Part shown: positions 169-32,808 of the stretch, piece by piece
How the letters are laid out: every line of letters starts with the position of its first letter
Numbering within the stretch: position 1 is the first letter of the stretch
Virus record (IMG/VR): IMGVR_UViG_3300041809_003506
Coordinates: 1 to 58,592 of that record
Direction: 5' to 3' (one strand)
Length of the DNA: 58,592 nucleotides
Source of the DNA: a virus
Lineage: Duplodnaviria; Caudoviricetes
Notes under the pieces: generated by a model
Seen by the model: only the letters and a program-made list of their open reading frames with translations
Told to the model about the DNA's origin: nothing
The model's database searches: none
Translations under genes and position numbers: made by a program

Positions 169-242
169 GACCTTAGCTCAAATCGCAATCCTCATTGCCA
201 ATCCTTCCGCCAATCCAACGCGGAACGAGGGGCGAACATCCG

Positions 243-2309: not shown

Positions 2310-2948
2310 TCATGCGGCCGTCAGTGTGGCTTTCAGTTTCAGATATGCCGCCACATCGGCGCAATAGCCGAGGATGCTGTGACAGGCGAACGGGTCACGC
2401 TGCGCCTGGCCGACTGCGATCAAGAAGTGCACGTCGAGGAACGTAAACAGCGGCGGCACGTCGAACGGCAGCATCGGCACCGGATCGTTGCCGCGGCGAT
2501 ATTGCCGCACGTCGATCGACGCCAGCGCATCGACAAACTTGCCGCCACCAAAGCGTGGCGAGCCGAACGTGACGATCGCCAGCGGCGGCTTCCCCATGCA
2601 GGCCAACAATGCGCCGACGCCGAGCGCAAGCGCACCACCGAGTGAATGCCCGGTGATGATCACCGGCTTATCGGCGAGCGCGGATTGCAGCGCCGGCATG
2701 ATGCCATTGGCGCCGTCGAGGAAGCCGACGTGGCAAAGGCCGAGCTGCGGATGATCCTTTTCCAGGACCGGCAGGCAGATGAAGTCCCGCGCCCAATCTC
2801 CCGCCGTGACCGAGCCGCGGAAGGCGACGACTTGCACGTCGCCCATAACCGTGATCCGCGCATCGGTGCCGGCCATCGGCACCGGCAGCGTCGGCGGATC
2901 GGCGTAGGTCGCAGCGCAGAGCTGCGCCAGATCGGCGTCGGAGATCAT
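2310..2948 (-). CDS. Class 3 lipase / phospholipase
   Basis: VAFRGS, HVGF, ITGHSLGGALA (GxSxG), TFGSPR, NDPVP and terminal His; start MISDAD couples to the upstream stop. Confidence 0.9.
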   Translation of the reverse strand: MISDADLAQLCAATYADPPTLPVPMAGTDARITVMGDVQVVAFRGSVTAGDWARDFICLPVLEKDHPQLGLCHVGFLDGANGIMPALQSALADKPVIITGHSLGGALALGVGALLACMGKPPLAIVTFGSPRFGGGKFVDALASIDVRQYRRGNDPVPMLPFDVPPLFTFLDVHFLIAVGQAQRDPFACHSILGYCADVAAYLKLKATLTAA

Positions 2949-3154
2949 GCGGGCATTCCGAATTTCTTCTCTGCCGCCGCGCGTATCTTTTCGTGCAGCG
3001 CGATCAGCTCGCCGAAAACCTTCATGAACTTGTCGAAGGAGACTTCGATCGCCTCGCCGGCCGACACGCGGAGCCATGCCTGGTCGGCAGCGCCGCGTAT
3101 CTGCTCGGCGAGCGTCTCGTCGATCGCGGCGAGCACGCGCTCGCCGGGCGTCAT
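2945..3154 (-). CDS. Hypothetical protein (69 aa)
   Basis: Translationally coupled on both sides. Confidence 0.6.
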   Translation of the reverse strand: MTPGERVLAAIDETLAEQIRGAADQAWLRVSAGEAIEVSFDKFMKVFGELIALHEKIRAAAEKKFGMPA

Positions 3155-4077
3155 GGCGTCAGCGTCATCGCCGGCAAGGTGATCGGCGCCAAGGCCGGCA
3201 TCAGAGCCGTTGCCGCCGCCGGCAGGATCTTGATGCCCACCATCGCCATGATTTGAATGAATGTGTTGATCTCGTCGCCGAGCAGCGGCGCGCAGCCGAG
3301 CTTGAGATAGGTGGGCAACCCGGCCTGCAACTGCGCAATGAAGTCACGCTTTTCCTGGAAGAGCTGCACGCCGACGAACTTGCCGGTCAGCTTGGCGGCG
3401 ACCGGCAATGATTGCAGGAACTTCACGGCAGCCGGATAGCAGGCATGCGAGATCGGGTCTTTGACGACCGCGGCAGCGCCAGGATTTGCCGGAACCGCCG
3501 GCGTCACGACCGTCACCCCGTCAGGCGCGATAACAGCCGGAACCGCCGGCGTCGCCGGGATCGCCGGAGTCACGACGGTGCCGGCGTCGACATCCGCCGC
3601 GTTGATGTCGACGACGATGGCGGCAACATCCTCCGCTTTGATTTTTTCCAATTTGTCCATCAAGTCGGCGATCGGATCGTTGCTCGTTGGCGGATTGGCT
3701 GCCGGAGCCGCGGGCACAGTCTTTTGCAGCGGCAACGACAACGGTTTCAACTTCGGGAAACTGACGCCATTCGCTGCCTGCGCCGGCATGGCGAAGGAAA
3801 GCGCAACGCCAATGATTAGAAAGCCGATCAGCGCCTTGACCGCCGGCGGGACCGAAGGCGTCGGGATCATCATCCCAGCGTCTTTCGACGAATACGCCGA
3901 CATTCCCGTCATGACAGTGGTACCGATGAACGCCAGCAATGCGCTCCAGCCCTTGACGTAGGGAATCCAGTCCAGCGGTACGACGTTGGTCAGCGAGACC
4001 GAACCCTGACCGATGCCCTGCTCGATCATCAACGCGATACCGAGGAAAACTACCCACTTCGGATCGATGCCTTTCAT
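3151..4077 (-). CDS. Membrane protein with holin-like N-terminal TMs and a Pro/Ala-rich exported C-terminal domain
   Basis: Two or three TM segments, an AQA site, then PAIPATPAVPAV repeats; AGGAGA SD. Confidence 0.6.
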   Translation of the reverse strand: MKGIDPKWVVFLGIALMIEQGIGQGSVSLTNVVPLDWIPYVKGWSALLAFIGTTVMTGMSAYSSKDAGMMIPTPSVPPAVKALIGFLIIGVALSFAMPAQAANGVSFPKLKPLSLPLQKTVPAAPAANPPTSNDPIADLMDKLEKIKAEDVAAIVVDINAADVDAGTVVTPAIPATPAVPAVIAPDGVTVVTPAVPANPGAAAVVKDPISHACYPAAVKFLQSLPVAAKLTGKFVGVQLFQEKRDFIAQLQAGLPTYLKLGCAPLLGDEINTFIQIMAMVGIKILPAAATALMPALAPITLPAMTLTP

Positions 4078-4412: not shown

Positions 4413-4655
4413 TCAATCAATCAGGCGATGGCCGCGCAGCACGGCGCGGCAGGCTGGCGAAATCTGCGCCTTGTTGATGATCAGACAGTGTGCGACCGGC
4501 CGCGGATCGCCGAAATACGCCGCCAACAAATCCCCGATCGAGCACAGCCGCCGGGCATCGGCTTCGCAGGCGATGCGTTCGCGCGACATCGTCGCGGCGT
4601 CAGCTTGCGAAGCGCAAAGGCAGAATGCGAGAATGAGCGGACCGATGACGCGCAT
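4413..4655 (-). CDS. Secreted cysteine-rich helical protein
   Basis: Signal peptide ending ADA; C-x7-C...C-x10-C pattern. Confidence 0.65.
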   Translation of the reverse strand: MRVIGPLILAFCLCASQADAATMSRERIACEADARRLCSIGDLLAAYFGDPRPVAHCLIINKAQISPACRAVLRGHRLID

Positions 4656-5497
4656 CAATTCGACGCCTGCCTGAGCTGTGCATTGATCGCCAGCCAGGTC
4701 TCCGGCCCGGCGATGCCGTCGGCTTCAAGCCCGACCGCCTCTTGGAACGCGGCAACAGCGCGCCGTGTCTCGCGGCCGTAGCTGTCATCGACCGTCAGCG
4801 GCGGATCGCAGCCGAGCGAATTCAATGCGCGCTGCACGTCGCCGGCGTCGCGCAAGCCGACTGGTGTCGCCATCGGCGGCGGCACGACGGCCGCGGCGAT
4901 CTGCATCGGTGCGGCGGGGAAGGCGACCGGCAGCGCCAGGTCGGGGCGCAGCTCGACGATACGAAACATCATCGGGATGACGCCGAGCTGCTCGTCGACG
5001 GCATTAGCGTCGAACACGCCGTCGCCGGTAAACTTGCTCCGCGTATAAATGCTCGTTCCCGCCCACAGGTATGGCGTGTGAACGCCGCGCGCGCGATAGC
5101 CGAAGCCGTTGAATAGCTCCCACTCGTAGCAGGATCGCTCCCAGCTCCAATTCGCGGCGCCGACAGCGTCGAGATGATCGATCTGGTAGGATTTGATCTG
5201 TGCCGCAGTAAAACTCGCGAACGGTCCGATGCCGCGCGGCACATGCACGGAAACGTGGTCCCACGGATCGCCCTGTGCCGGGCTCAATCTGAAATTCGAT
5301 GCCGCCTCGCGCTCGAATGAAGCCGCAGCGTCAATCTCCGGCACTTGCGTCGCATCACAGCCGGCCTTGTAGCGGCCTTCGTCGATGAAGCTGATCAGCC
5401 TGTGCGCAGCCGCCTCGACCGCGGTCCCGCGCGTGATCTTCATCTGCGCGAGCAAAGCGGTGTATTCCGGCGCGAGAACCGTGAACGGATGCTGCAT
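4655..5497 (-). CDS. Endolysin: lysozyme-like catalytic domain plus C-terminal peptidoglycan-binding domain
   Basis: ELFNGFGY...PYLWAGT...DG motif; VQRALN...VDDSYGRETRRAVAAFQ...GLEADGIAGPETW (PG_binding_1). Confidence 0.88.
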   Translation of the reverse strand: MQHPFTVLAPEYTALLAQMKITRGTAVEAAAHRLISFIDEGRYKAGCDATQVPEIDAAASFEREAASNFRLSPAQGDPWDHVSVHVPRGIGPFASFTAAQIKSYQIDHLDAVGAANWSWERSCYEWELFNGFGYRARGVHTPYLWAGTSIYTRSKFTGDGVFDANAVDEQLGVIPMMFRIVELRPDLALPVAFPAAPMQIAAAVVPPPMATPVGLRDAGDVQRALNSLGCDPPLTVDDSYGRETRRAVAAFQEAVGLEADGIAGPETWLAINAQLRQASN

Positions 5498-5519: not shown

Positions 5520-5804
5520 TTAGTCGTGCCAGCAGGCCGCGCGGCGATCGCGCAATTTCTTCTTTCTCGCGCCGACGGCCGCGCAGGAATGTGGTGCGAC
5601 CGGCTTGATTTTCGTGAAACGATAGTGCGGCGCGGGCGGAATGATGACGGACCGCGCCGGCGCCGGCTCGATGGGAACAACAGCAGGCGCAGCCGCAACC
5701 GCCTCATGGCGCTGCGCGTGATCGTAGGCATGCAAGCCAAAGGCCACGGCCAAACCGACGATGAGGCCGAGCAGCGCGCCGGGAACGTAATTGCGCAAAT
5801 TCAT
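5520..5804 (-). CDS. Small N-anchored or secreted protein
   Basis: Hydrophobic N-terminus, Pro/Ala linker, basic tail. Confidence 0.55.
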   Translation of the reverse strand: MNLRNYVPGALLGLIVGLAVAFGLHAYDHAQRHEAVAAAPAVVPIEPAPARSVIIPPAPHYRFTKIKPVAPHSCAAVGARKKKLRDRRAACWHD

Positions 5805-6954: not shown

Positions 6955-7767
6955 ATGAATATTCGGGCGACAAATCGCTGGAACCGGATCAAGGCGCGAC
7001 TTGCCACGCCGTTTTTGCGTCGCCTGCTGCGGCGCCGGAGTCATCTTGAACTGAGAGAAGAATTAGCGAGGCGATACATCCGCGGCGACGGCATCGAGGT
7101 CGGCGCGCTCAATGCCCCGTTACGCCTGCCGGATTGTGCGAACGCCCGCTACGTCGACCGCGCGCCGGGGAACGCGTTGCGGACAATGTATTCTTCCGAT
7201 ATCCGCGTGCAGTCGCCAGACATCGTATCCGATCTGGAAACGCTTGACGGCATTGGCGATGCGAGTCTCGATTTCGTCATCGCCAATCACGTGCTGGAAC
7301 ACGTCGAAAATCCACTGCAGGCGCTGGCGGCGGTCAGTCGCGTATTGCACCGGGACGGCATTGCCTTCATCACCCTGCCGGACAAAAGGTTCACCTTCGA
7401 TAAACGCCGCGCGATTACGCCGCTGCAGCATATCATCAGGGATTTCAACGAAGGACCGAGATGCTCGCGCCGCGAGCACTACCGGGATTGGGTCAAGAAC
7501 GTCGAACGATTGGCGGCAACGAAGGTTGAAAGACGTGCAACCGTGCTACAGAACCAAGGCGAAAACATTCATTTTCACGTGTGGGATTTCGCGGCGATGC
7601 GCGAAATGTTCGATTATGCCGCAACAGCCCTTCTCATAGATCTCGTTGTCGAGCATGCGCGCGAAAACCGCGGCGAAGTAGTGTGGGTGCTGCGACGAGA
7701 ACATGCCGCCGCAGCCAATACCTATCTCAATTGCCGGTCACGATTTTGCGGGTTCAGTGATGCTTAA
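6955..7767 (+). CDS. Class I SAM-dependent methyltransferase (moron, opposite strand)
   Basis: GIEVGAL, YVD, SLDFVIANHVLEHVENP, RVLHRDG motifs. Confidence 0.85.
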   Translation: MNIRATNRWNRIKARLATPFLRRLLRRRSHLELREELARRYIRGDGIEVGALNAPLRLPDCANARYVDRAPGNALRTMYSSDIRVQSPDIVSDLETLDGIGDASLDFVIANHVLEHVENPLQALAAVSRVLHRDGIAFITLPDKRFTFDKRRAITPLQHIIRDFNEGPRCSRREHYRDWVKNVERLAATKVERRATVLQNQGENIHFHVWDFAAMREMFDYAATALLIDLVVEHARENRGEVVWVLRREHAAAANTYLNCRSRFCGFSDA

Positions 7768-8503
7768 ATCCCGCGATGATGATGGCGTTGTAGTGCGACG
7801 TTCCCATTGTCGGGGCGTACTTGAGAGTTCCTGTACCGGAATTAACAACGCTGCCGCCTCCCCCGGAGGCGCTGCTGCTGTTCTCAAAAGTTAATGTGGA
7901 CGCCCATGCTGCGTTTGTTGAGTCCTGAGTAAAAGTCCCTGTGCCATTCCATCCTAAGAAGCCGACAAACAGTTCACCTGCTTGACCGGGGGTTCCGCTG
8001 GTAACGGATGGAGTCGAGCTGCTGGCAGTGGCCGACGCCGTCACCGCCGCATCTAATGGAGAAGGCGTGGTCTGGATGCAGGACGCGAAAAGCGCGCTGA
8101 TTGAAGTAGCATCACCGGAAGTCGCTTTAGTGTAGGTTATGCTACCGCCTGATAGCGGCAAGACGTTATAGGCATAGAAAAGCTGGATATTCCCCAAGCC
8201 AGAATTGCCGTTAACGTAGGCTTGTTTGATAAGCGTGTAGGAGTTGCCAGCAGAGTCAGCCACAGACCCGTTGCTGGATGGCTGTATTTCTGTAATTCCA
8301 ACGACGATGAGCGAGCGCGCCGGCACATTGACGCTAGTGAGCGCTACCGTTGCCCCCGATGCGTTGGCGTTCCCCCCAAGACTGTTGGCGGTTGGTACGT
8401 TGCAGCCAAAATCAACGATGGGCCACAGCAGTTGCGCGCGAGGCACATCGCCGTAAGCGAACAGAGAAACAAAAACGGAAAAAAATAAAAGAAATTTTTT
8501 CAC
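7754..8503 (-). CDS. Signal-peptide-bearing Ser/Thr/Gly-rich beta protein; terminal fibre or receptor-binding candidate
   Basis: GTG start overlapping the upstream TGA; MKKFLLFFSVFVSLFAYGDVPRA leader; visibly lower GC. Confidence 0.7.
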   Translation of the reverse strand: MKKFLLFFSVFVSLFAYGDVPRAQLLWPIVDFGCNVPTANSLGGNANASGATVALTSVNVPARSLIVVGITEIQPSSNGSVADSAGNSYTLIKQAYVNGNSGLGNIQLFYAYNVLPLSGGSITYTKATSGDATSISALFASCIQTTPSPLDAAVTASATASSSTPSVTSGTPGQAGELFVGFLGWNGTGTFTQDSTNAAWASTLTFENSSSASGGGGSVVNSGTGTLKYAPTMGTSHYNAIIIAGFKHH

Positions 8504-9897
8504 GATGCGGTCCAGGTACCAACAAAGGTCGTTGTCAGATAATGCGTTGAATCGAGACCGACAATGCAAACCATGTCGCCCACGGCGCCGCCGCTAGTCA
8601 ATGTTCCCGTGCCGGCCGTGCCGTACCCGGTGCGCTGGGTTTTTTCATAATAGGCGCTCGATCCGATCGCACCGAGCGTTATCACCGTGCTGACGTTGTC
8701 GCCGTTCATGACGCAGAACTGATAACCCGCCGCCGGCACCGGGGGCGTTACCGTGCAGGTCGAAGTGCAAACAAAATATCCGAAAGGTGCGGTGAGCGTG
8801 TGGCCGGTGCTTGAACCTGTTGCCAGCGACGGCGCCGATACCGAAAGTGTGCAATTTATCGATGACGTCGAATTGCACGTTCCGCTTTCGCTGATGCCCG
8901 TCCCGGCGACAATATCGACACTCGACAGCCCGCCGCCGCCGCCAGCGGCCGCATCGATCTCCGGACCGAACAGCAGCATCGCATAGGTGCCGCCAGCGCC
9001 ATTGGTCGACAGCACCCGCCCTAGCACTTCATTGCTGGTCGGATAGGTCGCCCCGGCGTCATGGCAGTCGCCCGCCACGGTCGAGCTGATCTGCACATAA
9101 TCGCCGGCCGTGGTGGCCCCGTCGAAAACGCAGGACGCTTGCCCTTCGAGCGCGATCTGCGCATTGCCGGTGGTGCCGGCGTTGCCGACGACGACGCCCA
9201 GCGCCGTATTGGTATCCGTGGTTGCGGTAATCAGCGCCGTCGACGGCGCCCCGGTCAGCTTCGCCAGCTTGTTGAGCGTGGTGCCGGTCGACGAAGCGTT
9301 GGCGATTTCAGAAATCAGCGCGTTGCTGGTGAGGTCGATCGACTCCGACGATGAAACGATCGTGCCGTTGTCGGAAAGCGCCGACGCCGTCGGCGCGCTC
9401 GAGCCATTGCCTTTGTAGATGACGTTTGAGGATTCGCTGGCGACGGTCGCGAGAGGGCCGAACGCCGTGCCACTGGTCTTGGTGCAGGTGATCGCGCCGC
9501 TTGCCGCAAGCGCGCAATCGCCACTAAGGGCCTTTGACAGCCAATCCGAGCCGGCACCCTGGTCGATCGGGATATTACCGGCGGTCGCTGCCGTGATCAG
9601 ACCGAGGGCGCTCGTTCCTTCCGCCTGCAACAGCGAATGCGCAGTTGGTGCATCGATGCCGGTGCCGCCGTTCGTCGTATTGAGCGGTGAGCTCAACGTC
9701 GCCAAGGGGCCGATCGTAACGCCGTTGACCTTGGGGCAGAGGATGACGTGCAGCGTCGGATTCCAGGTGCAGTCACCCGTCATCCACGCCCGCGGCCGCG
9801 ATCGCTCGCCGGGCGAGATGAATTGCGCCTGCGCGGCACTCAAGGTGCCGGCAAGCAACAGCGTCGCGAGCGCGATCTTGAGAGCGCGTTTCAGCAT
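8500..9897 (-). CDS. Tail-fibre-like protein with signal peptide and 12 Cys
   Basis: MLKRALKIALATLLLAGTLSAAQA/QF; GGTG and GDC...C...GPLAT shaft repeats. Confidence 0.75.
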   Translation of the reverse strand: MLKRALKIALATLLLAGTLSAAQAQFISPGERSRPRAWMTGDCTWNPTLHVILCPKVNGVTIGPLATLSSPLNTTNGGTGIDAPTAHSLLQAEGTSALGLITAATAGNIPIDQGAGSDWLSKALSGDCALAASGAITCTKTSGTAFGPLATVASESSNVIYKGNGSSAPTASALSDNGTIVSSSESIDLTSNALISEIANASSTGTTLNKLAKLTGAPSTALITATTDTNTALGVVVGNAGTTGNAQIALEGQASCVFDGATTAGDYVQISSTVAGDCHDAGATYPTSNEVLGRVLSTNGAGGTYAMLLFGPEIDAAAGGGGGLSSVDIVAGTGISESGTCNSTSSINCTLSVSAPSLATGSSTGHTLTAPFGYFVCTSTCTVTPPVPAAGYQFCVMNGDNVSTVITLGAIGSSAYYEKTQRTGYGTAGTGTLTSGGAVGDMVCIVGLDSTHYLTTTFVGTWTAS

Positions 9898-9935
9898 GGC
9901 GGCCTATTCTCTGCTTCGTCGTCCAAGGACCGCAC

Positions 9936-10442
9936 TTAGAAGTCGGCGCAGACCGCCATGAAGTTGATCTGATCGGTGGATGTCAGGTTGGTGGCGTAGG
10001 TCGCCTTCAAGGTGTCGCCGTTTGTCAGATAAAAATACGGATTGCCGTCGCTATCGACCGGCAGCCCCGGCCAGTTGGTCGACGACATCAGGTTGAGCGG
10101 CGTCCCGTAGGTCGAGGCGCCGCCGCTCAACGGGATCGTGACGGCAGCCATCGGGACCGTGGTCGAGCTGTGAATGATCTCGACGGTCAGCAGATGCGTG
10201 GCGCTGTTGTCGTTGCTCTCCGCCATCAGGCCGGTGCATTTCGAACCGTTGCTGCCGCCGGTATAAAGCGTCTTATAGGTGCCGGCGGTATCGGTGCCCT
10301 GAATGAAGGTCTGCACGCCGATATTCGGCGTCTGCACGAAGACCGGCGTCGCGGTGACCGCTGCCAGCACCGGCAGCGGCGCCAGCGCCGCGGCAACAAC
10401 AATAGCAAGCGCCGTGACGGCGCCGATGATTCTGCGCAGCAT
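9936..10442 (-). CDS. Fibre-associated beta-sandwich protein with signal peptide
   Basis: GAGGA SD; MLRRIIGAVTALAIVVAAALAPLPVLA/AVTATPVFVQTP...CADF; the upstream part of the track ORF is spurious. Confidence 0.75.
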   Translation of the reverse strand: MLRRIIGAVTALAIVVAAALAPLPVLAAVTATPVFVQTPNIGVQTFIQGTDTAGTYKTLYTGGSNGSKCTGLMAESNDNSATHLLTVEIIHSSTTVPMAAVTIPLSGGASTYGTPLNLMSSTNWPGLPVDSDGNPYFYLTNGDTLKATYATNLTSTDQINFMAVCADF

Positions 10443-10468
10443 TTTCATGTCCTCGCTGATGGTAATTT

Positions 10469-11161
10469 TCAGATGCCGCCGATGTTGGCTTGCGCAAATG
10501 CCGCGATCAGCGGCACCTGCAGATTGCCGCCGCCCTGCGATAGCCCGTAGCCGACATTGGAGACGGCGCCCGACGATCCGAGATTGACCTGACCGAAGTT
10601 GCAAGCCGTACCACCGCTGTTGACAACGAGCACCTGGTTGGCCGTACCCGTCACGTCGGCGACATTGGCCGTCGAGCTGGTGCAGTTGCCGACGACGGAT
10701 AGCGCCGCCGACTGACGGAATTTCGCGTTGCTGACGGCATTGGCGCCGATGGCGGTCACGCCGCCATTCGTGATCGTCACGTCGCCGCTGATCGTCTGAC
10801 AAGAGGGCGCGCCGGATTGCCCGATCGGAATTTGCGCGCTGGTGCAAACGGCAATGGTGGCAGGCGCGCCCCCGACGCCGCCGCCGATGACGAAGGCGTT
10901 TTGCGCCAACAGTGCGGACGATGCGATAGAGCCCGTGGTGAGAAAATACGGAATGCCGCCAGACGTGCCCGAGCTCGGCCAGCTTATCGAATTGATACTC
11001 TTGCAAGTGAGCCCATGCTCGGCTGGCGACCAGGTGCAATCGCCGATCATCCACATGCGCTGATTGGCGCGCTCGCCCGGCATCAGGAATTGCGCGTGCG
11101 CGGCGACGATGCTGCCGCACAGCCCGAACAGGACCGCAGCGATGCGAAGTGCGCGCGTCAT
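10469..11161 (-). CDS. Tail-fibre-like protein with signal peptide
   Basis: TGATG coupling; MTRALRIAAVLFGLCGSIVAAHA/QF; SGDVTI shaft motif. Confidence 0.75.
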   Translation of the reverse strand: MTRALRIAAVLFGLCGSIVAAHAQFLMPGERANQRMWMIGDCTWSPAEHGLTCKSINSISWPSSGTSGGIPYFLTTGSIASSALLAQNAFVIGGGVGGAPATIAVCTSAQIPIGQSGAPSCQTISGDVTITNGGVTAIGANAVSNAKFRQSAALSVVGNCTSSTANVADVTGTANQVLVVNSGGTACNFGQVNLGSSGAVSNVGYGLSQGGGNLQVPLIAAFAQANIGGI

Positions 11162-11613
11162 CACATGCCCCCGAGATCGCGATGCAGCGCGACGAAACAT
11201 TCAGGACATGAGACCGAAAGCGATCCGCCCGACAGATTCGACGTGATCGGTGCACTGACGGTCACCGGCGATGCTCCGAAATATGGCTTCCATACCAGCG
11301 TCGAGGTGTTGAGCGTGCCGATCTCGACCCAATTCGTGCCATCCGGCGTAACGGAGAGCACCCACGGATTGCTGGTCGTGTTCCACCAGCACTCGCCGGC
11401 GAACGCCGCGCCATTATCATTGGCCGGCGCCGAGTTGCCGCTGTTGCAGCTACCGATCGAAAGAAATGCCGCGTTGAGATATGTTGCCAGGCTCGACATC
11501 GGCAACGGCGAGCCGGGCACCGGCGACACGGTCGCCTGCGACGCGAGCGCAGGCGAAATCATAACGCCAAGCGCAAACCAGATCCCGGCAACGATCGCTT
11601 TGAAAGAGCGCAT
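11161..11613 (-). CDS. Short tail-fibre anchor-domain protein with signal peptide
   Basis: MRSFKAIVAGIWFALGVMISPALA/SQ...NSGNSAP...WWNT...DGTNW. Confidence 0.75.
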   Translation of the reverse strand: MRSFKAIVAGIWFALGVMISPALASQATVSPVPGSPLPMSSLATYLNAAFLSIGSCNSGNSAPANDNGAAFAGECWWNTTSNPWVLSVTPDGTNWVEIGTLNTSTLVWKPYFGASPVTVSAPITSNLSGGSLSVSCPECFVALHRDLGGM

Positions 11614-11619
11614 CAGCAA

Positions 11620-13320
11620 TTACCCGACCATCTGCAGTGGCGCGCCGTCGTCGTTCGCCGGCTCCAGCGCGCTCATGTATTCTATGAGCATCATTGAACT
11701 CTGCGTACCCGTGGTGAATCCGCCGAGCCAGGTGCCGGTGCCGGTTCCGTTCGTCTTCAAGTAGACGCTGTACTGCGTCGCGCTCGTCGTGTTCGGCGCG
11801 TCGAGACCGTCGAGCGCGGCAGACGCTCCCGCGTTTATCGAACCGCCGGTATAGGTGGCTGCGATATTTCCAAACAGATTTGACGGTCCAGAACTGGCGT
11901 TGCTCCGCGCGAGCTGCGCTACGGCTTCTGTGCCGACGTTAGTTCCGGTATATAGAAATCCCAGTACCTGGGCATTCACGAGATTCGCGGCCGACGTCGG
12001 CGTTATGCTCAGCACCGTGCCTGTGATCTGAAACGTGGAGCTGGTCGTGCTGGTCCCTGTTACGTTCACGCCGTAAACGATCTGCACCACGTCTCCCGGC
12101 TTCTTGATGCCGGGGCCGAACATTTGCACATAGCTCGGCGACGCCCAGCCGGTGCCCGACGTCCAGATCGCCTCGACGTAGCCGACGATGCGGATTGCCT
12201 TGCCGCTCAGGCTCGCAATCGAGGTCTGGATGGTACCCGCCGCCGTGCCGCCGGTAGTGCCAGATCCGGTATTCTGCAGCACTGCCTCGTTGAGCTGATA
12301 GATTTGCGTCGGCGTGGATTGATTGCTCAGGCCGAGCAGGATCGAGGTGCAGGCGCCGGCGCTTTCCGTCTGGCAGACCGCCGTGACCCACAGGCGGCAC
12401 AGCACCGCCGTGGTGCAGCCCATGTTGTCGGTCGAGCCGAGCGTCATGCTCAGGGCCGCTGTCAGCACGCCGGGAATGACCGCAGACGTGCTGTTGTTTC
12501 CAGTTTGGCTGCGGAAGCTGGTCAGGATCGGATTGGTCGACGAGGCGTTGGAGCCGTTGACACCGACCAATGCGACCGTGAGCTGGTTGCTCGCGCTCGA
12601 TCCGAGCAGGCTGCCGTTGATCGGAGATCCGAAGCCGGTCGCCGACGCTGCCAGAGCCGAGGAGCCGAGGCTGAGCCCGACTGACGACAGTGGCGCTCCC
12701 GTCGCGCGCATATAGACGACGACCTGCACATTGGTCGCGGTCAGCGCCATTACCAAAGCATAGTCGCCGGCCGCCGTCGTGATGTTGTTGCCGCCATTCG
12801 GCAGGCCAAGCGGCGTCCCTTGCGTCAAGGTCAGCGCGCCCTGGAACGTCACCAGCTTGAGCGAGCCCGGCACCGCATCGTTATTGGCGAGCTGCGTGAT
12901 CGTCGTCGTGCCGCTGACGGTAACCGACGATTGCGGCACCGACCACAGATCGGTGGTCGACGCCGAGGCAATGGTCTGCTGCTCGCCGCCGCCGATCTGC
13001 ATCGCGATCAGATGATTAGTCGCGTCGACATACCAAAGTGCGTTCCAGTCGGTACCGTCATATTGGCTGACGATGCTCGTCGACGTGTTCCACCACAGCA
13101 TTCCGGTCGATGCCGGCGACGGCGCCGAGCCGCCGCTGTAGACCGTGAGGATCGAGCCGGTGCAGGCATTGATATCGTTGACCAGCGTCAGGCCGGAGAC
13201 CGTGCCGGTCGTCGGCATTACGCACGAATTCTGCGAGGCGCCGGCGATGAACGGCGCGGCCAGCGCCGCCAGCAAAAGCGCGCAGCCGAACAGCGGCGCC
13301 AGGGCGCGTCTGAGCATCAT
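11620..13320 (-). CDS. Tail fibre protein with signal peptide
   Basis: MMLRRALAPLFGCALLLAALAAPFIAGA/SQ...SGGSAP...WWNT; IASASTTDL and ITTAAGD fibre motifs. Confidence 0.8.
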   Translation of the reverse strand: MMLRRALAPLFGCALLLAALAAPFIAGASQNSCVMPTTGTVSGLTLVNDINACTGSILTVYSGGSAPSPASTGMLWWNTSTSIVSQYDGTDWNALWYVDATNHLIAMQIGGGEQQTIASASTTDLWSVPQSSVTVSGTTTITQLANNDAVPGSLKLVTFQGALTLTQGTPLGLPNGGNNITTAAGDYALVMALTATNVQVVVYMRATGAPLSSVGLSLGSSALAASATGFGSPINGSLLGSSASNQLTVALVGVNGSNASSTNPILTSFRSQTGNNSTSAVIPGVLTAALSMTLGSTDNMGCTTAVLCRLWVTAVCQTESAGACTSILLGLSNQSTPTQIYQLNEAVLQNTGSGTTGGTAAGTIQTSIASLSGKAIRIVGYVEAIWTSGTGWASPSYVQMFGPGIKKPGDVVQIVYGVNVTGTSTTSSTFQITGTVLSITPTSAANLVNAQVLGFLYTGTNVGTEAVAQLARSNASSGPSNLFGNIAATYTGGSINAGASAALDGLDAPNTTSATQYSVYLKTNGTGTGTWLGGFTTGTQSSMMLIEYMSALEPANDDGAPLQMVG

Positions 13321-13344
13321 GGAACGATCCTTATCGGGAGAACG

Positions 13345-13653
13345 TCAGGCCGCGGGCTTGGCGGCGACGGCCTTGGCGATGGTCGCGCTGGTCTTGCCGA
13401 TCATGTCGAGCCAGAGGTCGACATATTTGTCGGCGAACTGTTCGATCTCCTTCACCATCGGCGGCGTCGGCGAAAATTCCGGCGCCAGATCGTCGACCAT
13501 TTCCTTGCTCGCCGCCTTGACCGCCGCGAGCATGGCCTGCGCGCGGTCGGGCGGCAGCGTCGCGGCGAGCTGGCCGGCAACGGCGGTCACCACCGCCTCG
13601 AGCGCAATCAGCCGCCCGGCAAATTCCTTGCCGCTCAAAGTCGGTCCAGGCAA
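13345..13653 (-). CDS. Hypothetical protein (102 aa)
   Basis: AGGAGG SD; co-oriented with the late operon. Confidence 0.6.
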   Translation of the reverse strand: MPGPTLSGKEFAGRLIALEAVVTAVAGQLAATLPPDRAQAMLAAVKAASKEMVDDLAPEFSPTPPMVKEIEQFADKYVDLWLDMIGKTSATIAKAVAAKPAA

Positions 13654-13678
13654 TGACGCCTCCTAATGTGCGGCCGTC

Positions 13679-14149
13679 TCAGCGCGGGCGCTTGCCGATA
13701 GTGATGATCATGAAGTCGCGGTTGCCTGGCACCACGGTGACCGCGTAACGATCGCTGAGTGCGGCCTTCAGCGCCGACGCGACCTTCCCGGCATCCGCAA
13801 GCTGTTTGTCGCCTCGCGCCGCCGTCAGCTCGATGCCATAGCCGAGCGGATAAAACGATCGGTCAAGCGCGCTGCTGACTTTCGCATCCTCGAACGCGTC
13901 ATCGAGATCCTGGGCAAGATCGGTCGCTGCCGCGTCGGCCGAGACGATATCGACCTTGTAGCGCAGACCCTTCACCGCGGCCGCGAATGCCGCCTTCTGC
14001 ACATCGGTAAGATCGGGCCACGCATGCTTGCTTACGGCGATCGAGTGCGTGACCTGCTCGACGTGCTTCGGCGCATAGTGGACCGCACCCGCACTGACAG
14101 CCACAGCAACAACGGCGGCTATCGAGCCATGAATGATGTGATCGCGCAT
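13679..14149 (-). CDS. N-terminally anchored or exported hypothetical protein
   Basis: MRDHIIHGSIAAVVAVAVSAGAVHYA hydrophobic leader. Confidence 0.6.
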   Translation of the reverse strand: MRDHIIHGSIAAVVAVAVSAGAVHYAPKHVEQVTHSIAVSKHAWPDLTDVQKAAFAAAVKGLRYKVDIVSADAAATDLAQDLDDAFEDAKVSSALDRSFYPLGYGIELTAARGDKQLADAGKVASALKAALSDRYAVTVVPGNRDFMIITIGKRPR

Positions 14150-14150
14150 T

Positions 14151-17100
14151 TCAAAACCCTTCAACGGTGAGTGTGAGCTGACGCGCGACCTTGCTGCCGC
14201 CGTTCAAGATTTCGAAGGTGACGGCCGACAGCGACAGCGCCGTGACGATCAGATCATCGCCGGCTTGCGCGTTGACGATGCCCCACGAGATTGCTGGCAA
14301 GTCCCCTGGCCCGGCACCACCATTGAACGGCGACGCCGTGCCGATTAACGGCGCAGTCGAAGTAACGCCGGATTGCCCGAATGTTACGCTGGTCGTCGCC
14401 GACGACGACGTGGTCAGCGGATATTGATCGATGCGCGGCGGGATCGTCGCCGTGATCTTAAAGACCGTGTCGTAGCCGATCGCAGCCGGATCGACCGACT
14501 CCAGAAAGAACGACCAATCGAGGAACCGCGCCTGATAGGCGCCCGGCGAGAACTTCTGCCAGTCGCCCCACGCCGGATCGGAAGCAGCGTAGAGATCGGG
14601 ATAGGCGTAAAGATCGCCAAGCGCATAGAGGTCGCCGCCGAGTGCGGTCGCCGTCTGGATCAGCGGATAGCCTTCGACGAAGGCGGTGTTGGCGGCGCCG
14701 AGAATATCCGCGGTGCCGAGAAAGTCGGCAAGCGCCAGCACGTTCTGCGATGCCGGCACGCCGGTGAGTTGATAAGCGACCGACACCGACACGTTGGCGA
14801 CATAGCCGATGTCGAGATAGGTATCGGAGGGATAGAACGTACCCGATCCGGAATCGCCGCCAATGTTGAGAATGTCCGGCGTATTGAGAAAATCGGTGAT
14901 CGCCAGGACGTTGGCGCGCGACCCGGTGCGGATCGCGTTGTCGGTCGCATCGTAGCCGACCGCGCCGGTAAAAGTCCCCGGCCAGTACGCCGCTGCCACG
15001 TCGATCGACAGAATGACGTTCTGCGTGAGAACGGCGCCTGAGATCGTGATGCTCTGCGGCGCTTCGGAGTAGACCTGCAGTCCGGATGCCGGTTGTGCGT
15101 AGGCCGACACCCAATAGGTGCCGTTGCCGGGAACGGTGAACGGCGATTGCGCGTCGTCGTCGAGAATGACCGCCGATTGCCAGGTGGCACCGACCCTGAC
15201 CTCATAGGTCGGATTGCGGAAGTCGCTCACCTTGTCCCAGATGAGCTGATTGAAGCCGATATTGGCGTTGTAGTTGGAGCGCAGGTTGGTGACGTTCGCC
15301 AGCGGCGAGGACAGTGCCGCCCCGGTGATCAGGTAGGGATAAGCCGCACAGTCGGCGAGGTTTTGTGTCCCTCCTTGATAGATGTTGAAGGATTGGAATT
15401 TCAGATAGACGACCGAGCCGATGCGGCTCTGATCGTAAGGGAAGGCGAAAATGTTGCTGTCGAGCCGGGCAAACGGCGTGCCGGCCGGATGATCGACGAT
15501 CTCGCTCTCGGTGCCGTAAGCGCCGCGCACCAGGTAGGTAAGATTATAGGCATTCGGCCCGGTCAGCGTCGCCGTTTCATAGGCGATGACTTCGCTGCCG
15601 ACCAAGCAACGCGTGTTGAGCGAGAGCACATCGAGCGTCGTACCGGATGATAGCGTGCCGGCGCTTTCCGCGAGCGAAACCGCCAGCGTGTCGGCCTGGT
15701 CGATGGTCTGTCCGGTCGGATTGATATCGACCGGCGGCAGGTCAGCGGTAGTGACGCCCATGCGCGCTGGACCGATGATCTCCCCTATCTGGGTATATTT
15801 CTCGCCATCGTAACTCGCCCAAACGTTACAGCCGCCCCAGAGACTTGTATTTTCTCCCGAGATGGCGCCGGCGATCATCAGGCCGCCGCCCGAGATCATC
15901 GTGGCGGCGAGTTCGTCGGTCGGCTCGAAGATGATCGGGGCGTTGATCGGTCCCGGATCGGCGTTGTAATTCAGCGCCGGCTGCAAGCTCGGCTGCGTGC
16001 CATATTGCGGCGCCGATACGGTGCCGAGATATTCCTCGGCGGTGATAGTGAGCGAGAAGTCCTGGTTCTCGTAAATCTCGATGATGCGGACCGGCTGCTC
16101 GAGCAGCCCCTGGCCTTCGTCGGTCACCGTGACCAGCGCCATCAGCTCAAGGATGAGCATGAAGTGGCGGCCGCAGGTCCACTGGAAAGTGCGCGCGATC
16201 TGCTGCCGGATCAGCGACAGCGTTGCTGATTGCTGTGCCGCCGCGGCCAGACAGAAGAAATGCAGTTGCTTGATGTCGCTCGGTCGCGTGCGGTTGAACG
16301 AGGTGATCGACGCCTCGTCCTTTACCTCAATGTCGACCGGGTTATAGGTGTTGTTCCTGTCGAGGTATTCGACCTTGATGTCGTTGAGCATCTGATCGCG
16401 CGACTTGCGCACACAGATCAGCGGCGAATTGTTGACGGCCAGTCCCGTGCCGAGCGTGCCCTGATTGGGCAGGAAGTCGTCGAGCGTGAAGGCGTAGAGC
16501 GGCGAGGTGTTCGGAACGTAGGACGCGGTCGCTGCGTAATTATAGGTGATCAATACGCCGGCGTTGATATCGGCCGGGCTGAAATAATAGACGCCGCCCT
16601 GCTCGTAGTATTGCCCCTGCGCCGGCGTTCCCGATGTCGAATAGCCGGTCGGCGCGTAGGTCGAAACCTTCTGTAGCGGGGCGCCGCTCAGATAAGTGAC
16701 ACCACCATCGCCGGCAAAGGTCGCATAGAAGCTGACCTTGATGCTCGGGAAATAAAGCGGCGTATTGTTGCTGTCGACGCCTTCCTGATCCTGCGGGACG
16801 TCGTAGGTTTCGGTGATGGCCTGGATCTGCCCGGCGGTAACGGACTTGTCGCCGTAGGGAACAACCGTGAACTCGCCGTCCTGCCAGCACGGCGCCGCAT
16901 TGGTGGCTGCGGTCAGATCATTGACAAAGGCAGAAGCCGCGATCGGCGAAGCGATCACCGGCGAGACGCCAAAGCCGAGCGCGATGCAATAGCTCTGCCA
17001 ATTTGCCAGCGAGCCGAGACGCGCGCTCGGGAAGCCGAGGCCGTAATACTCATTAGTCAGGAATGCCGTCAGCGCGATCGAGGGATCGCCATCAGGCTGG

Positions 17101-17672
17101 CCGGGAATAACATTGCTCTGGTTGGTCGACCCGACCTGAAAGGTGAAGTTGGGAATCGCGGTCGACGAGCCGAGCGGAAAGTTACCGAATGCACTGTAAC
17201 AGATGCCGCGATAGTTGAGCGCGTGCGACGAGTCCGTGTCGAGCATATAGCCCCACGGATCCTGCTCGTAATCGCCGAGATAATCCTCCGCCTGATAGCT
17301 GTAGTTGCCGAGCGTGAGAATGGTCGATGCCGGCAGATCGGTGTCCGGCAGCGCATTGCCGGTGCCGTTGATCCACATGCCGGAGATCGAGGCAACCGGG
17401 CCTTCGCAGATGCCGACGATGAAGGTAACGAAATAGATATAATTGCCGGAATTACCCTTGCCCGATCCGGCACTAAACAGGCCGCCTTTGCCGCCAGTCG
17501 GCGCGTTCTGATAGTTGAAGTTGGTATAGTCGATTAGATTGCCGGCGAGCCGATTGGCGCCGCCCAGCATCAACGCGATCGGGACGCCCTGCAGCGAGGT
17601 GTTGATGCGCAGCGACGTCGCCGGCGGCGAAACAGGGCTTGCACCGAAGAGACCAGTGAGAAACCGAGCCAC
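14151..17672 (-). CDS. Central tail tip / host-specificity protein (Phage-tail_3, J-like)
   Basis: 1173 aa; GICEGPV, ALNYRG, VEYLDRNNTYN, YLVRGAYGT, YLKFQSFNIY motifs; follows NlpC/P60. Confidence 0.85.
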   Translation of the reverse strand: MARFLTGLFGASPVSPPATSLRINTSLQGVPIALMLGGANRLAGNLIDYTNFNYQNAPTGGKGGLFSAGSGKGNSGNYIYFVTFIVGICEGPVASISGMWINGTGNALPDTDLPASTILTLGNYSYQAEDYLGDYEQDPWGYMLDTDSSHALNYRGICYSAFGNFPLGSSTAIPNFTFQVGSTNQSNVIPGQPDGDPSIALTAFLTNEYYGLGFPSARLGSLANWQSYCIALGFGVSPVIASPIAASAFVNDLTAATNAAPCWQDGEFTVVPYGDKSVTAGQIQAITETYDVPQDQEGVDSNNTPLYFPSIKVSFYATFAGDGGVTYLSGAPLQKVSTYAPTGYSTSGTPAQGQYYEQGGVYYFSPADINAGVLITYNYAATASYVPNTSPLYAFTLDDFLPNQGTLGTGLAVNNSPLICVRKSRDQMLNDIKVEYLDRNNTYNPVDIEVKDEASITSFNRTRPSDIKQLHFFCLAAAAQQSATLSLIRQQIARTFQWTCGRHFMLILELMALVTVTDEGQGLLEQPVRIIEIYENQDFSLTITAEEYLGTVSAPQYGTQPSLQPALNYNADPGPINAPIIFEPTDELAATMISGGGLMIAGAISGENTSLWGGCNVWASYDGEKYTQIGEIIGPARMGVTTADLPPVDINPTGQTIDQADTLAVSLAESAGTLSSGTTLDVLSLNTRCLVGSEVIAYETATLTGPNAYNLTYLVRGAYGTESEIVDHPAGTPFARLDSNIFAFPYDQSRIGSVVYLKFQSFNIYQGGTQNLADCAAYPYLITGAALSSPLANVTNLRSNYNANIGFNQLIWDKVSDFRNPTYEVRVGATWQSAVILDDDAQSPFTVPGNGTYWVSAYAQPASGLQVYSEAPQSITISGAVLTQNVILSIDVAAAYWPGTFTGAVGYDATDNAIRTGSRANVLAITDFLNTPDILNIGGDSGSGTFYPSDTYLDIGYVANVSVSVAYQLTGVPASQNVLALADFLGTADILGAANTAFVEGYPLIQTATALGGDLYALGDLYAYPDLYAASDPAWGDWQKFSPGAYQARFLDWSFFLESVDPAAIGYDTVFKITATIPPRIDQYPLTTSSSATTSVTFGQSGVTSTAPLIGTASPFNGGAGPGDLPAISWGIVNAQAGDDLIVTALSLSAVTFEILNGGSKVARQLTLTVEGF

Positions 17673-17673
17673 A

Positions 17674-18123
17674 TCAGCGCTGCCATTTGCTAAAGAATTT
17701 TACGTCGAGGATCGGAATGCCGAGATGCACGGAGGTACCGAAGCCGCGGCGCACACAGCGGGCGCCGAAATGAGCGTGAATGATCGACGGCCAGCCCGGC
17801 TTGACGATCAATGCAGCGTGAGAAAAACACTTTCCAGCCTTATACAAAACCACATCGCCGTGCTTGACATGCTCGAGCGGAATCTCGTGGGCAAATTTCC
17901 GCACCCAGCCGAGGTAACGCTCTTCCGATTGGTGAAGAAAAAACTGCGGTGAATAATAGCCGATCTCAAAAGGCTCGATCAGCCCGGCTTCCAGAAACAC
18001 GCATTTCAGAAGCGTGGCGCAATCAACTCCCGCGCCCTTGACCTCGCCATGATCGTGAAACGGCGTCCGCAGCCACGTCCGCGCGATCGCATCGACGCGG
18101 TCGCGTTCGGCTTCCTCGGTCAT
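17674..18123 (-). CDS. NlpC/P60 tail-associated peptidase
   Basis: ARTWLRTPFHDHG...GVDCA...GDVVLY...SHAAL...IIHA. Confidence 0.9.
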   Translation of the reverse strand: MTEEAERDRVDAIARTWLRTPFHDHGEVKGAGVDCATLLKCVFLEAGLIEPFEIGYYSPQFFLHQSEERYLGWVRKFAHEIPLEHVKHGDVVLYKAGKCFSHAALIVKPGWPSIIHAHFGARCVRRGFGTSVHLGIPILDVKFFSKWQR

Positions 18124-19088
18124 CCTTGCGACTCTGGCGGCGGAATCCAGGGCTGCCCGCCGTAATTAGGTTGATTGTTGAACAGACCGCATGTCGCGTA
18201 GAGCTTGTTGCAGCCCGGATAGACCGTGAATGGGTCGCCGGCGGCGATTGCAAACGGAAAGGGATTGAGCAGCGATAACGTTTGATTGCCATCCCAGCCA
18301 GAGATCGTGCGCTGGAATCCGGCGTTCAAGCCGCCGGTGAAGACAATGCGACCGAGTAGGTAGGTTCCTGATCCCAGAGGCACCGGGAAGTCGGTGCCGA
18401 CGATAACCGCTTGTGTCGAGCTGGAGCCAGCCGTTCCATTGATGGCAAAGCTCGCCGCATTCATGTTGCCGGATGCGTTGCACCCGACGTCAAACAGGGT
18501 ATGCCGGCACTGCGCTTCATAGAAGTGCAGCGGCATCTGGATGGTGAGCAGCGACCGATAATCGTTGACCGTGAGCACGGCCACGGCGTTCGTGGTGTCG
18601 ACCTCCGCGACAGTGCCGGCGAAGATGGTTCGGCATCCGACCGGCGAAGCGCCACCGGGCGGCATCGGCCACGTCGGCAATGCCGAGAAAAAGGCCTCGT
18701 CGACCTGAAAGTCCGCGGCGTCGAGAGCTCCGCCAGAGGCCGCCTGCAGCCAGGGCACCGAGCCGATGGTGTCGGGAAACGCCGCTCCGGTCACCAAATC
18801 GAACGGCCGCGGCATCAGCACCAGCACCCAGGTATCGGTATCGGTGCCGACTTTCAGATGCGCTTGGGTCTTGCTCTGTTTCTGATCGACCTTGATGCCG
18901 CCGGACGGATACCTATAGCCGTTGACCAACGTGCTTGTGGAATTCCCGACGATGTCGAAGTCGGCATCAGTGAAGCGGATTCGTCCGCCCTGAAACATCG
19001 TGATCGTGTAGAGCCTTGCAACATAGAATGGCGCGGCCGTCTCGACGATGTTATTGAACAGCGCGATCAGTGCCGGAGTTGTCGTCAT
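18120..19088 (-). CDS. Baseplate hub protein (DUF2163/BR0599-like)
   Basis: RFTDADFD, CRHTLFDVGC, GDPFTVYPGCNK...C...FNNQPNYGGQPWIP. Confidence 0.88.
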   Translation of the reverse strand: MTTTPALIALFNNIVETAAPFYVARLYTITMFQGGRIRFTDADFDIVGNSTSTLVNGYRYPSGGIKVDQKQSKTQAHLKVGTDTDTWVLVLMPRPFDLVTGAAFPDTIGSVPWLQAASGGALDAADFQVDEAFFSALPTWPMPPGGASPVGCRTIFAGTVAEVDTTNAVAVLTVNDYRSLLTIQMPLHFYEAQCRHTLFDVGCNASGNMNAASFAINGTAGSSSTQAVIVGTDFPVPLGSGTYLLGRIVFTGGLNAGFQRTISGWDGNQTLSLLNPFPFAIAAGDPFTVYPGCNKLYATCGLFNNQPNYGGQPWIPPPESQG

Positions 19089-19091
19089 GGC

Positions 19092-19703
19092 TCACGGCAA
19101 TTTTTCCGTCGAGAATTTCAGGCTTTTCACTTCAGCCAGCGTCGACATGAAGTTGGAGAATTCGATCGAGTCATCGTCGAAACGACACGGCCAGTAGAAA
19201 AACCCGGTCCACGTCAACGCCGCGCCGGATGCCGGTGCGCTCGAGAAATTCACCACGCCGTAAGGCGAGATCGATGCCGGCACTACAGGCGACCCGGCGA
19301 CGTTAATCGTCGGCGTGCCGTTGACCAGAAACACCGGCTCGGTAAAACCGCCGAGCGTGCGCACCAACTGAAACGCCGTGGTGACGCCGTCGCCGGTACC
19401 GAATTCCTGATTGGCAGCCGCGTTATCGTTCGGATCGCTATAGGCCCAGAGCTGCCCCGGCCCCTGCACCGAGTTGATGAAGCCGAGCAGCGCCTGCCAT
19501 TCCAAAGCGACAAGACCGCCGAGCGCGATCGTCGCGGAATTCAGCGCATTGATCGTCAGCTCATAACTGTAGGTCGGATAGCTGTAGAGCGGCACGCGGG
19601 TGCGTTTGCCCGACAGCGCATCCTGCTTGACGGTATTCCAATTCACCGGCCGTTTGACCGGCCAGCCCAGGGCCGACAGCGTCGGGAAAACGGGAAGTGC
19701 CAT
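19092..19703 (-). CDS. Distal tail protein (DUF2460-like)
   Basis: SGKRTR, FGTGDGVTTAFQLVR, WTGFFYWPCRFDDD. Confidence 0.85.
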   Translation of the reverse strand: MALPVFPTLSALGWPVKRPVNWNTVKQDALSGKRTRVPLYSYPTYSYELTINALNSATIALGGLVALEWQALLGFINSVQGPGQLWAYSDPNDNAAANQEFGTGDGVTTAFQLVRTLGGFTEPVFLVNGTPTINVAGSPVVPASISPYGVVNFSSAPASGAALTWTGFFYWPCRFDDDSIEFSNFMSTLAEVKSLKFSTEKLP

Positions 19704-25138: not shown

Positions 25139-25142
25139 GTTA

Positions 25143-32689: not shown

Positions 32690-32808
32690 TTCGATATCTC
32701 CGAAAGAGTTGAGTGAATGCGCCTCACGGGTCGGGCGTGTCGCGATGCGACGCGCTCGGCGCGGCGAAAACCCCGGCGTGTCACCGGGCAAAAAGCTGGA
32801 ACGGAAAG

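Follow-up and report, generated by a model that had tools for sequence, protein, structure and literature searches.

The fibre locus and its leaders

The viral record IMGVR_UViG_3300041809_003506 (Caudoviricetes; 58,592 nucleotides, ~62% G+C), which we analysed over its whole length and call the window, carries six consecutive minus-strand open reading frames (ORFs) behind a g15-like tail-tip gene, all with an amino-terminal leader. The first encodes fibre A (566 amino acids, 11620-13320), for which we could draw on homologues, synteny, an AlphaFold2 (AF2) model and a complex model. It is followed by protein B (150 amino acids, 11161-11613), a type-1 N-domain with a short tail; protein C (230 amino acids, 10469-11161), which has a type-2 N-domain in common with E; protein D (168 amino acids, 9936-10442), modelled as a jelly-roll beta-sandwich; fibre E (465 amino acids, 8500-9897), in which the type-2 N-domain leads into mosaic fibre segments; and protein F (249 amino acids, 7754-8503), which starts with GTG. 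All six starts named by an initial annotation of this DNA (13320, 11613, 11161, 10442, 9897 and 8503) were confirmed, as was the tight or overlapping packing that it described: B starts 6 nucleotides beyond the stop codon of A, the ATG of C and the stop of B overlap by 1 nucleotide, and the GTG of F overlaps the stop of E (GTGA). AGGA/GAGGA-like sites lie 7-12 nucleotides upstream of the starts of A and D. A scan limited to the sigma-70 consensus found no promoter-like site on the minus strand between g15 and F, and minus-strand terminator-like sites were not found between the genes, only weak ones inside them.

The module sits between tail tip and lysis genes, where the initial annotation had placed it, with DUF2460, BR0599-type, NlpC/P60 and g15 genes upstream and an endolysin gene with a PG_binding_1 domain downstream. 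The leaderless 1173-residue g15 product (14151-17672, minus strand) is a tail-tip or host-specificity protein with Pfam Phage-tail_3 and Rcc01698_C matches. Leaders, coupled starts, fibre position and homology can be read directly in the DNA. We take the six ORFs to be the distal tail-fibre or receptor-binding module of a siphophage with a tail like that of a gene transfer agent (GTA).

Leader calls combined a home-made rule for hydrophobicity, charge and the -3 and -1 residues with reading by eye and comparative evidence, and used no trained predictor. A signal peptide was taken to have a basic n-region, an h-region of ~7-15 residues, and small residues at -3 and -1. Read by eye, all six proteins have the basic, hydrophobic and Ala-ending leader that had been reported for them, with 1-3 Lys/Arg, a hydrophobic stretch and small residues at -3/-1; the rule flags four of the six. 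On the minus strand, the leaders comprise residues 1-28 of A (13237-13320), 1-24 of B (11542-11613), 1-23 of C (11093-11161), 1-27 of D (10362-10442) and 1-24 of E (9826-9897), and for F, with an uncertain cleavage site, 16 or 23 residues (~8435-8503). Across the window the rule flags 9 of 64 greedily called ORFs, namely A, B, C and E (D and F fall outside that gene call) and those at 3151-4077, 5520-5804, 13345-13653, 24665-25150 and 56658-57002. Against this background of 5 in 60, six consecutive leaders are far beyond chance.

No Cys follows the cut at +1 in any of the six proteins, and without this lipobox residue a lipoprotein (signal peptidase II) reading was rejected. The A and D leaders contain Arg-Arg, and leaders of homologues (19-34 residues) mostly lack it; Tat export was rejected because the pair is not conserved. 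The choice between Sec and Tat, posed by the initial annotation, thus falls towards Sec as the probable export route.

Families and folds of the fibre proteins

Scans against Pfam, PHROGs and NCBIfam gave a family for none of the six proteins, the Pfam scan found no S74 domain in A-F, and a protein search of INPHARED found no match for E or D and only a weak one for A. Homologues were nevertheless numerous. Fibre A has 505 at E <= 1e-3, many of them full length, and a relative of its middle domain is encoded by 462 of 599 pattern-matched IMG/VR stretches. Two motifs singled out in the initial annotation as fibre-like, IASASTTDL and ITTAAGD, map to this middle domain, the part common to the 462 viral stretches.

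Fibre A comprises a type-1 N-domain to residue ~110, the widespread middle domain (111-211), C-terminal beta-sandwiches and a tip resembling TNF/C1q-like lectins. In its AF2 model (predicted local distance difference test score (pLDDT) 83.6), residues 1-26 are unstructured and lie outside the fold. A fold search of the PDB matched the last ~145 residues to TNF/C1q-like trimeric lectins, including the PLTL lectin (E 9e-6; template-modelling (TM) score 0.71-0.77 by target) and BC2L-C, and to the tip of Bdellovibrio Bd2734 (8okw; E 1.7e-4). The whole model matched 296 viral models in BFVD at E <= 1e-3, some named tail fiber, C1q or tail collar.

The other proteins resemble fibres to different degrees. 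Protein B is 59-64% identical to proteins of the closest relatives among the loci that we fetched (L094, L095 and L098; fetched loci carry L numbers throughout), with the alignment beginning inside the leader, and in these relatives the B-type N-domain heads fibres of 727-729 amino acids. The type-2 N-domains of C and E match each other at E 8.5e-14, and no other relative of this domain was found among proteins of 255-814 amino acids. Beyond the N-domain, C resembles part of an annotated tail fiber protein of Bradyrhizobium phage ppBdUSDA122-1 (51% identity), and it is 51% identical to an L011 protein over 141 amino acids. Fibre E has 922 mosaic homologues, and leaders were flagged in 93 of the best 120. 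Its segments are scattered over different viral proteins of contigs L001-L009: the C-terminal third recurs in L001, L002 and L005, the middle in L003, L004, L006 and L007, and a short segment in fibres of 1208 and 1506 amino acids.

Protein D has 525 homologues and a jelly-roll beta-sandwich model (AF2, pLDDT 92.5). Its best VIA-align row was a phage cement protein (Z 9.2, root-mean-square deviation 3.2 over 111 residues), with many rows near Z 8, and Foldseek gave weak rows only; the modelled jelly-roll is thus of a fold class common in virion proteins, a generic likeness only. Viral members make up 83-100% of the Atlas clusters nearest to D and F. The fibre-likeness of these two proteins is limited to this viral neighbourhood and, for D, the generic jelly-roll.

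Leader-bearing and leaderless relatives

In loci that share g12-g15 with the window, the gene directly after g15 encodes the N-domain of A. It has a leader in L012, L013, L014, L021 and L022 and none in L015, L016 and L017, where it starts at most 10 bases from the g15 stop. Fibre genes also lie directly downstream of the tail-tip gene across L012-L022 and L094-L098. Of 31 distinct A-type proteins whose genes follow g15 homologues, 19 are leader-bearing and 12 leaderless. The two forms are close relatives: residues 29-212 of A are 62% identical to the leaderless L015 protein.

The leaderless forms begin where the leaders are predicted to end. In the A family, the Met-Ser-Gln start of leaderless members coincides with the Ala | Ser-Gln or Ala-Gln cut of leader-bearing ones. 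In the D family (150 listed representatives and D itself; 88 with a leader, 60 without), residue 1-2 of the leaderless homologues aligns to D residue 28, the predicted first mature residue. One leaderless D homologue lies within an all-leaderless fibre cluster (L092), and in L124 the gene that comes first behind g15 encodes a leaderless F homologue. Leader sequences of A and D homologues vary freely and keep the basic, hydrophobic and Ala-X-Ala pattern. These leaders look like real export signals added on to ordinary fibre proteins. The starts of leaderless homologues right after Ala-X-Ala sites argue for cleavage rather than for a weakly hydrophobic, uncleaved segment of the signal-arrest-release (SAR) or signal-anchor type, and comparison supports export of the fibre proteins well.

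We weighed the possibility that the leaders do not export, either as uncleaved anchors or because the proteins fold in the cytoplasm before Sec can act, which would leave ordinary fibres with an odd N-terminus. To our knowledge, assembly is cytoplasmic for every other tailed-phage fibre; Sec handles fast-folding trimers poorly; and a Cys pair in the middle domain of E also occurs in homologues not flagged as leader-bearing. Against these points stand the coincidence of leaderless starts with predicted cuts in two unrelated families, the pattern kept while leader sequences drift, the Cys pairs that accompany the leader (below) and the position of residues 1-26 outside the fold in the model of A. 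An uncleaved anchor would also press on the modelled g15 interface, as the docking motif of A lies only 8 residues past the cut. We consider non-exporting leaders improbable.

Another reading is that the six genes are a moron, or host-derived cargo of secreted proteins, inserted behind the tail genes and expressed in the lysogen. In lambda, morons are known to occupy the stretch behind the tail-tip gene, as lom does after J. The lack of Pfam, PHROGs or NCBIfam matches for A-F would suit such cargo, as would the AT-rich start codons of F and its abutment on an opposite-strand methyltransferase gene. However, many related phages encode an A homologue, leader-bearing or leaderless, in this very slot; members of the D and F families come mostly from viruses, and leaderless ones lie within fibre clusters (L092, L124); A and D are modelled as soluble beta-sandwiches and not as membrane barrels; and the starts are coupled with no minus-strand terminator-like site between the genes. 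We regard this explanation as very improbable. Like leaders without function, moron cargo fits the comparative data poorly. An outer-membrane-barrel reading was rejected on the soluble A and D models, and a Lom/Ail-type moron on these models together with the lack of a Pfam match and of a minus-strand promoter-like site matching the sigma-70 consensus.

Cysteines and the destination compartment

Exported bacterial proteins favour even cysteine numbers. The mature forms of A to F contain 6, 4, 6, 2, 12 and 2 cysteines, even in all six and arranged in close pairs. The D family offers a comparison between leader-bearing and leaderless members. Of 85 with a leader, 68 have two mature cysteines, 10 have four, 4 have six, 1 has three and 2 have none, and no member has a single one. 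The 54 without a leader mostly have none (26) or one (26), with two and three cysteines in 1 each and four or six in no member. Scored as the presence of leader and Cys pair, 133 rows divide into 79 with both, 50 with neither and 2 + 2 discordant ones. A D tree computed from sequences with masked cysteines requires at least 13 changes of leader state.

The A family follows the same trend. At least two cysteines in the N-terminal 192 amino acids were found in 18 of 19 A-type proteins with a leader after g15, compared with 3 of 12 without, and in the motif-anchored A family the median cysteine number was 8 with a leader (n=82) and 3 without (n=7; Mann-Whitney p 2e-4). By these comparisons, the destination of the fibres looks oxidising.

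Modelled docking of fibre A on g15

Across 45 mostly leader-bearing homologues of A, the most conserved stretch is alignment positions 35-43, which begins eight residues past the cut; P35, T36, G38, S41, G42 and L43 are invariant or nearly so. We assign the docking motif of A to residues 36-48 (13177-13215, minus strand). We modelled three A N-domains together with residues 785-1173 of g15 from our own alignments; the complex scored 0.70 (runs 0.71, 0.69 and 0.70), compared with 0.01 for the best control. Among solved complexes 58 of 80 attain the mark for this score, as do 2 of 110 mismatched pairs. Contacts coincide between the runs to at least 93%, with partner pLDDT of at least 87. No solved structure resembling A or the g15 C-terminus by sequence was found, so recognition of a known structure is unlikely to explain the score.

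The modelled interface pairs A 35-47 with g15 976-996, a segment that includes L979, L985, D989 and L991, which are invariant columns in 10 g15 homologues. The site is the second copy of a 14-residue motif of the DFL..DIL type (residues 978-991, 14700-14741, minus strand); the first copy spans residues 922-935 (14868-14909, minus strand). There are two tandem copies of this motif in g15 and two window proteins, A and B, with a type-1 N-domain. The C-terminal module of g15 also accompanies type-1 fibres on other tail-tip backbones (L011, L018 and L020). We predict that fibre A docks on this module (785-1173). A virion fibre identity for A is supported by its gene position behind g15, the conserved motif, the docking model and the fibre-like fold.

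Related loci bear on whether exported fibres end up on the particle. In L017 (7998-11180), leaderless and leader-bearing fibres with the same docking domain lie side by side, and L016 (4142-9021) combines a leaderless first fibre with a leader-bearing E-like fibre. L016 and L017 are the best natural cases for differing roles of exported and cytoplasmic fibres. They have the look of a virion copy with an exported decoy, as would be expected if the exported proteins worked away from the virion, as trimeric lectin-like fibres that are free or bound to the envelope. Such fibres might mask receptors, giving superinfection exclusion or protecting progeny from debris, might bind or loosen envelope polysaccharide, or might serve as adhesins like the mosaic adhesive trimer (MAT) fibres of Bdellovibrio. 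MAT fibres are a published precedent with the same layout (PMC10769870). The tip of A matches that of Bd2734, as given above, and most E relatives (93 of the best 120 flagged) sit on contigs of unclear context, some of 120-434 kb. Several observations speak against an off-virion role. With leaders on all six proteins, the window has no leaderless fibre left as the virion copy. Conservation in the leader-bearing A family peaks at the g15-docking motif, which docks in the model and would be dispensable for a decoy. Translational coupling ties the genes into a late tail operon, with no promoter-like site between g15 and F in the sigma-70 scan, and surface display would need an outer-membrane step for which nothing in the window accounts. 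We consider an off-virion role, whichever of these functions it took, the main rival to loading onto the virion, and somewhat less probable than it.

Spread of the leader habit

To gauge how common such leaders are, we used 36 g15-anchored IMG/VR loci (G+C >= 0.52, duplicate proteins removed). Among ORFs of at least 250 amino acids, the rule flagged 30 of 60 in the 7 kb downstream of g15, compared with 2 of 96 upstream (Fisher p 3e-13, which is indicative only as the rows are related). About half of the large genes after g15 are thus leader-bearing in this soil and wetland phage group. In a sample of 80 viral loci anchored on A instead, only 8 had leaders, which indicates that the habit is concentrated in this phage group.

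The habit extends to a cultured phage. In Bradyrhizobium phage ppBdUSDA122-1, both genes after the 1252-amino acid tail protein start with leaders (their products have 483 and 866 amino acids), and the second, annotated as a tail fiber protein, encodes 18 cysteines. The main text of the paper on this phage makes no mention of tail fibers, signal peptides or proteomics.

Proposed pathway

Tailed-phage morphogenesis is, in the textbook view, entirely cytoplasmic. The pathway that we propose for the window would divide it between two compartments. A Sec-type leader would take each unfolded fibre chain through the inner membrane, signal peptidase would cut after the Ala-X-Ala site, and the mature chain would fold, trimerise and form disulfides in the periplasm. 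The rest of the particle, including g15, would be built in the cytoplasm. Fibre A would retain, eight residues after the cut, its docking motif for the g15 C-terminal module, and fibres would meet particles only once the holin opens the inner membrane, so that assembly would be completed in the merged compartment or in the lysate. The advantage may be stabilisation of the fibres by disulfides, or separation of lectin-like fibres from sugar precursors in the cytoplasm. Leaders on all six genes would suit a fibre of several parts that have to fold in the same compartment.

The endolysin (4655-5497, minus strand; Pfam PG_binding_1, a C-terminal peptidoglycan-binding domain, and PHROG endolysin families) has neither a leader nor a SAR segment at its N-terminus. 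A soluble endolysin of this kind leads one to expect a hole-forming holin and holin-dependent release. Post-lysis loading is physically plausible, given the large size of holin lesions and the ability of fibreless T4 particles to take up fibres in vitro.

The initial annotation had interpreted the six genes as appendages that are exported to the periplasm and loaded onto virions when the inner membrane fails. Its export step gains support from comparison, both for cleavage at the predicted sites and for an oxidising destination. Its virion fibre identity gains support, from comparison and modelling, for A. The loading of fibres after lysis would be the step that joins these parts.

Several points count against the proposed pathway. 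The home-made rule has a probable false positive (13345-13653) and overlooks some leaders that are obvious by eye. The complex score expresses the confidence of a model built on our own alignments. On supported branches, the D family yields four independent pairs (3 same, 0 opposite, 1 unchanged; sign test p 0.25) and the A-type set two (p ~1), and both tests are underpowered. Of 57 motif-bearing homologues, 56 have the Cys pair of the E middle domain, 11 of them without a flagged leader; the pair thus does not track the leader. The mix of fibres in L016 and L017 suits an off-virion role of the exported copies at least as well. We neither know nor found a precedent for post-lysis assembly of a tailed-phage part.

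On balance, we put the chance that the fibres are Sec-exported, disulfide-bonded and joined to the particle only once the holin has opened the inner membrane at slightly under even. More tentative still is the wider picture of a two-compartment morphogenesis, in which the six-gene module is exported and clipped onto g15 seconds after the holin acts, and in which the habit is widespread, with lineages switching repeatedly and their Cys pairs switching along.

Neighbouring genes and other features of the window

The structural genes lie on the minus strand in the order HK97-type capsid (31196-32791), tape-measure-sized ORF (19707-21761), DUF2460 (19092-19703), BR0599-type hub (18120-19088), NlpC/P60 protein (17674-18123) and g15. 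Residues 10-190 of g15 match the megatron chains of the Rhodobacter capsulatus GTA (RcGTA; 6tba/6teh and 8gtc), and these genes make up a tail module of the kind found in RcGTA-like siphophages. An alphaproteobacterium resembling Bradyrhizobium is the probable host.

Two minus-strand ORFs without a Pfam, PHROG or NCBIfam family separate g15 from fibre A. The first encodes a cysteine-free 161-amino acid protein with one N-terminal hydrophobic segment (13679-14164). Its homologues occupy the same place in the closest relatives L094, L095 and L098, each followed by leader-bearing fibres, and the protein could be an assembly factor. The second (102 amino acids, 13345-13653) is flagged by the rule and has an N-terminus that by eye is unlike a signal peptide; no homologue was found in the fetched loci.

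On the other side, a plus-strand gene for an S-adenosylmethionine (SAM)-dependent methyltransferase (6955-7767), which converges on F, and two ORFs without a known role lie between F and the endolysin gene. The first codons of F (8470-8503, minus strand) are strikingly AT-rich for a genome of this composition. The AT-rich start and the converging gene are hints that this end of the cluster was acquired separately.

Elsewhere in the structural operon, a radical SAM protein (29360-30580) and a 501-amino acid ORF with a glycosyltransferase-like N-terminus (27871-29376), both on the minus strand, occupy an unusual place between the capsid and connector genes. In the head/neck part, the minus-strand ORFs 24665-25150 and 26711-27127 have signal-peptide-like leaders followed by two and four cysteines, respectively, even in both; they matched neither PHROG families nor the fetched loci. 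Exported head or neck accessories would fit the same habit. A small leader-bearing protein is also encoded at 56658-57002 (plus strand), with homologues in L017, L102 and L110, and in ppBdUSDA122-1 a gene in a similar place has the annotation RlpA-family lytic transglycosylase. At its left end, the record carries a tRNA-Pro (92-168, plus strand), an HNH endonuclease gene (195-836, plus strand) and a class-3 lipase or esterase gene (2310-3077, minus strand), which may mark the integration end.

We also looked for the fibre region in sequencing runs. The wetland metatranscriptome X3 contained 0.49 of the sampled words of 7754-13320, a word share that is silent on expression. Two DNA runs contained 0.71 and 1.00, and runs X4 and X5 small shares. 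No DNA match to 7754-17672 was found among INPHARED phage records.

Implications and comparison with known systems

A two-compartment morphogenesis, if true, would be categorically new. If the fibres are exported and reach the particle, lysis would be an assembly step and not release alone, receptor-binding proteins could use periplasmic disulfide chemistry, and fibre attachment would offer a naturally two-stage reaction to study. If they act off the virion, they would make up a large unrecognised class of phage-encoded secreted lectin-like fibres, with a bearing on superinfection exclusion and surface biology. Either way, annotation pipelines that assume leaderless structural proteins would misjudge such genes, and engineered fibres from these phages would need periplasmic expression. 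The joint switching of leader and cysteines in the D family provides a clean natural data set on the adaptation of proteins to a changed compartment. Bradyrhizobium diazoefficiens USDA 122 and the phage that it spontaneously produces are a cultured system, and not a pathogenic one, for direct testing.

Literature searches found no description of leader-bearing tail fibres in tailed phages; passages of four papers that came up deal with spanins or methods only (PMC3556154, PMC9144972, PMC13001222 and PMC8421802). Tail fibres are known, as is the leader, N-domain and fibre architecture found in MAT proteins. Their combination in a phage tail operon, and the spread of that combination, appear undescribed.

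The closest counterparts are the leaderless fibres of siphophages with GTA-like tails (L015, L016 and L017), which share the slot after g15, the docking domain, the middle domain and mosaic C-termini. Compared with these, the window fibres add a Sec-type leader of 23-28 residues before the docking domain and have more cysteines, which are paired, and every gene of the fibre module has a leader.

Cleavable Sec leaders are familiar from the coat proteins g3p and g8p of filamentous phages, which assemble outside the cytoplasm and are extruded without lysis. The window phage, in contrast, is tailed, with lytic release, and its capsid, tail and tail tip are leaderless. Lambda Lom and Bor, T5 Llp and Cor are exported proteins encoded beside tail or fibre genes, some of which block the receptor of their own phage. 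They are small outer-membrane proteins or lipoproteins unrelated to fibres, whereas the window proteins are homologous to fibres, include a docking domain and have neither a lipobox nor a barrel.

The nearest likeness in architecture is to the MAT proteins of Bdellovibrio bacteriovorus. In the MAT paper, all 21 have a signal peptide and a conserved N-domain of ~130 amino acids, and they form phage-like trimeric fibres, displayed on the surface, whose tips include TNF-like folds with disulfides (PMC10769870). The window fibres resemble them in signal peptide, N-domain, phage-like trimeric fibre and swappable tip, a comparison of architecture and not a demonstration of homology. Among the differences, no S74 domain turned up in the Pfam scan of A-F. 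MAT genes are cellular and their fibres stand on the surface of a predator, whereas the window genes lie at the fibre position of a phage tail operon. The N-domain of the window fibres is that of leaderless phage fibres and, in our model, docks on the tail-tip protein, a setting unlike that of MAT.

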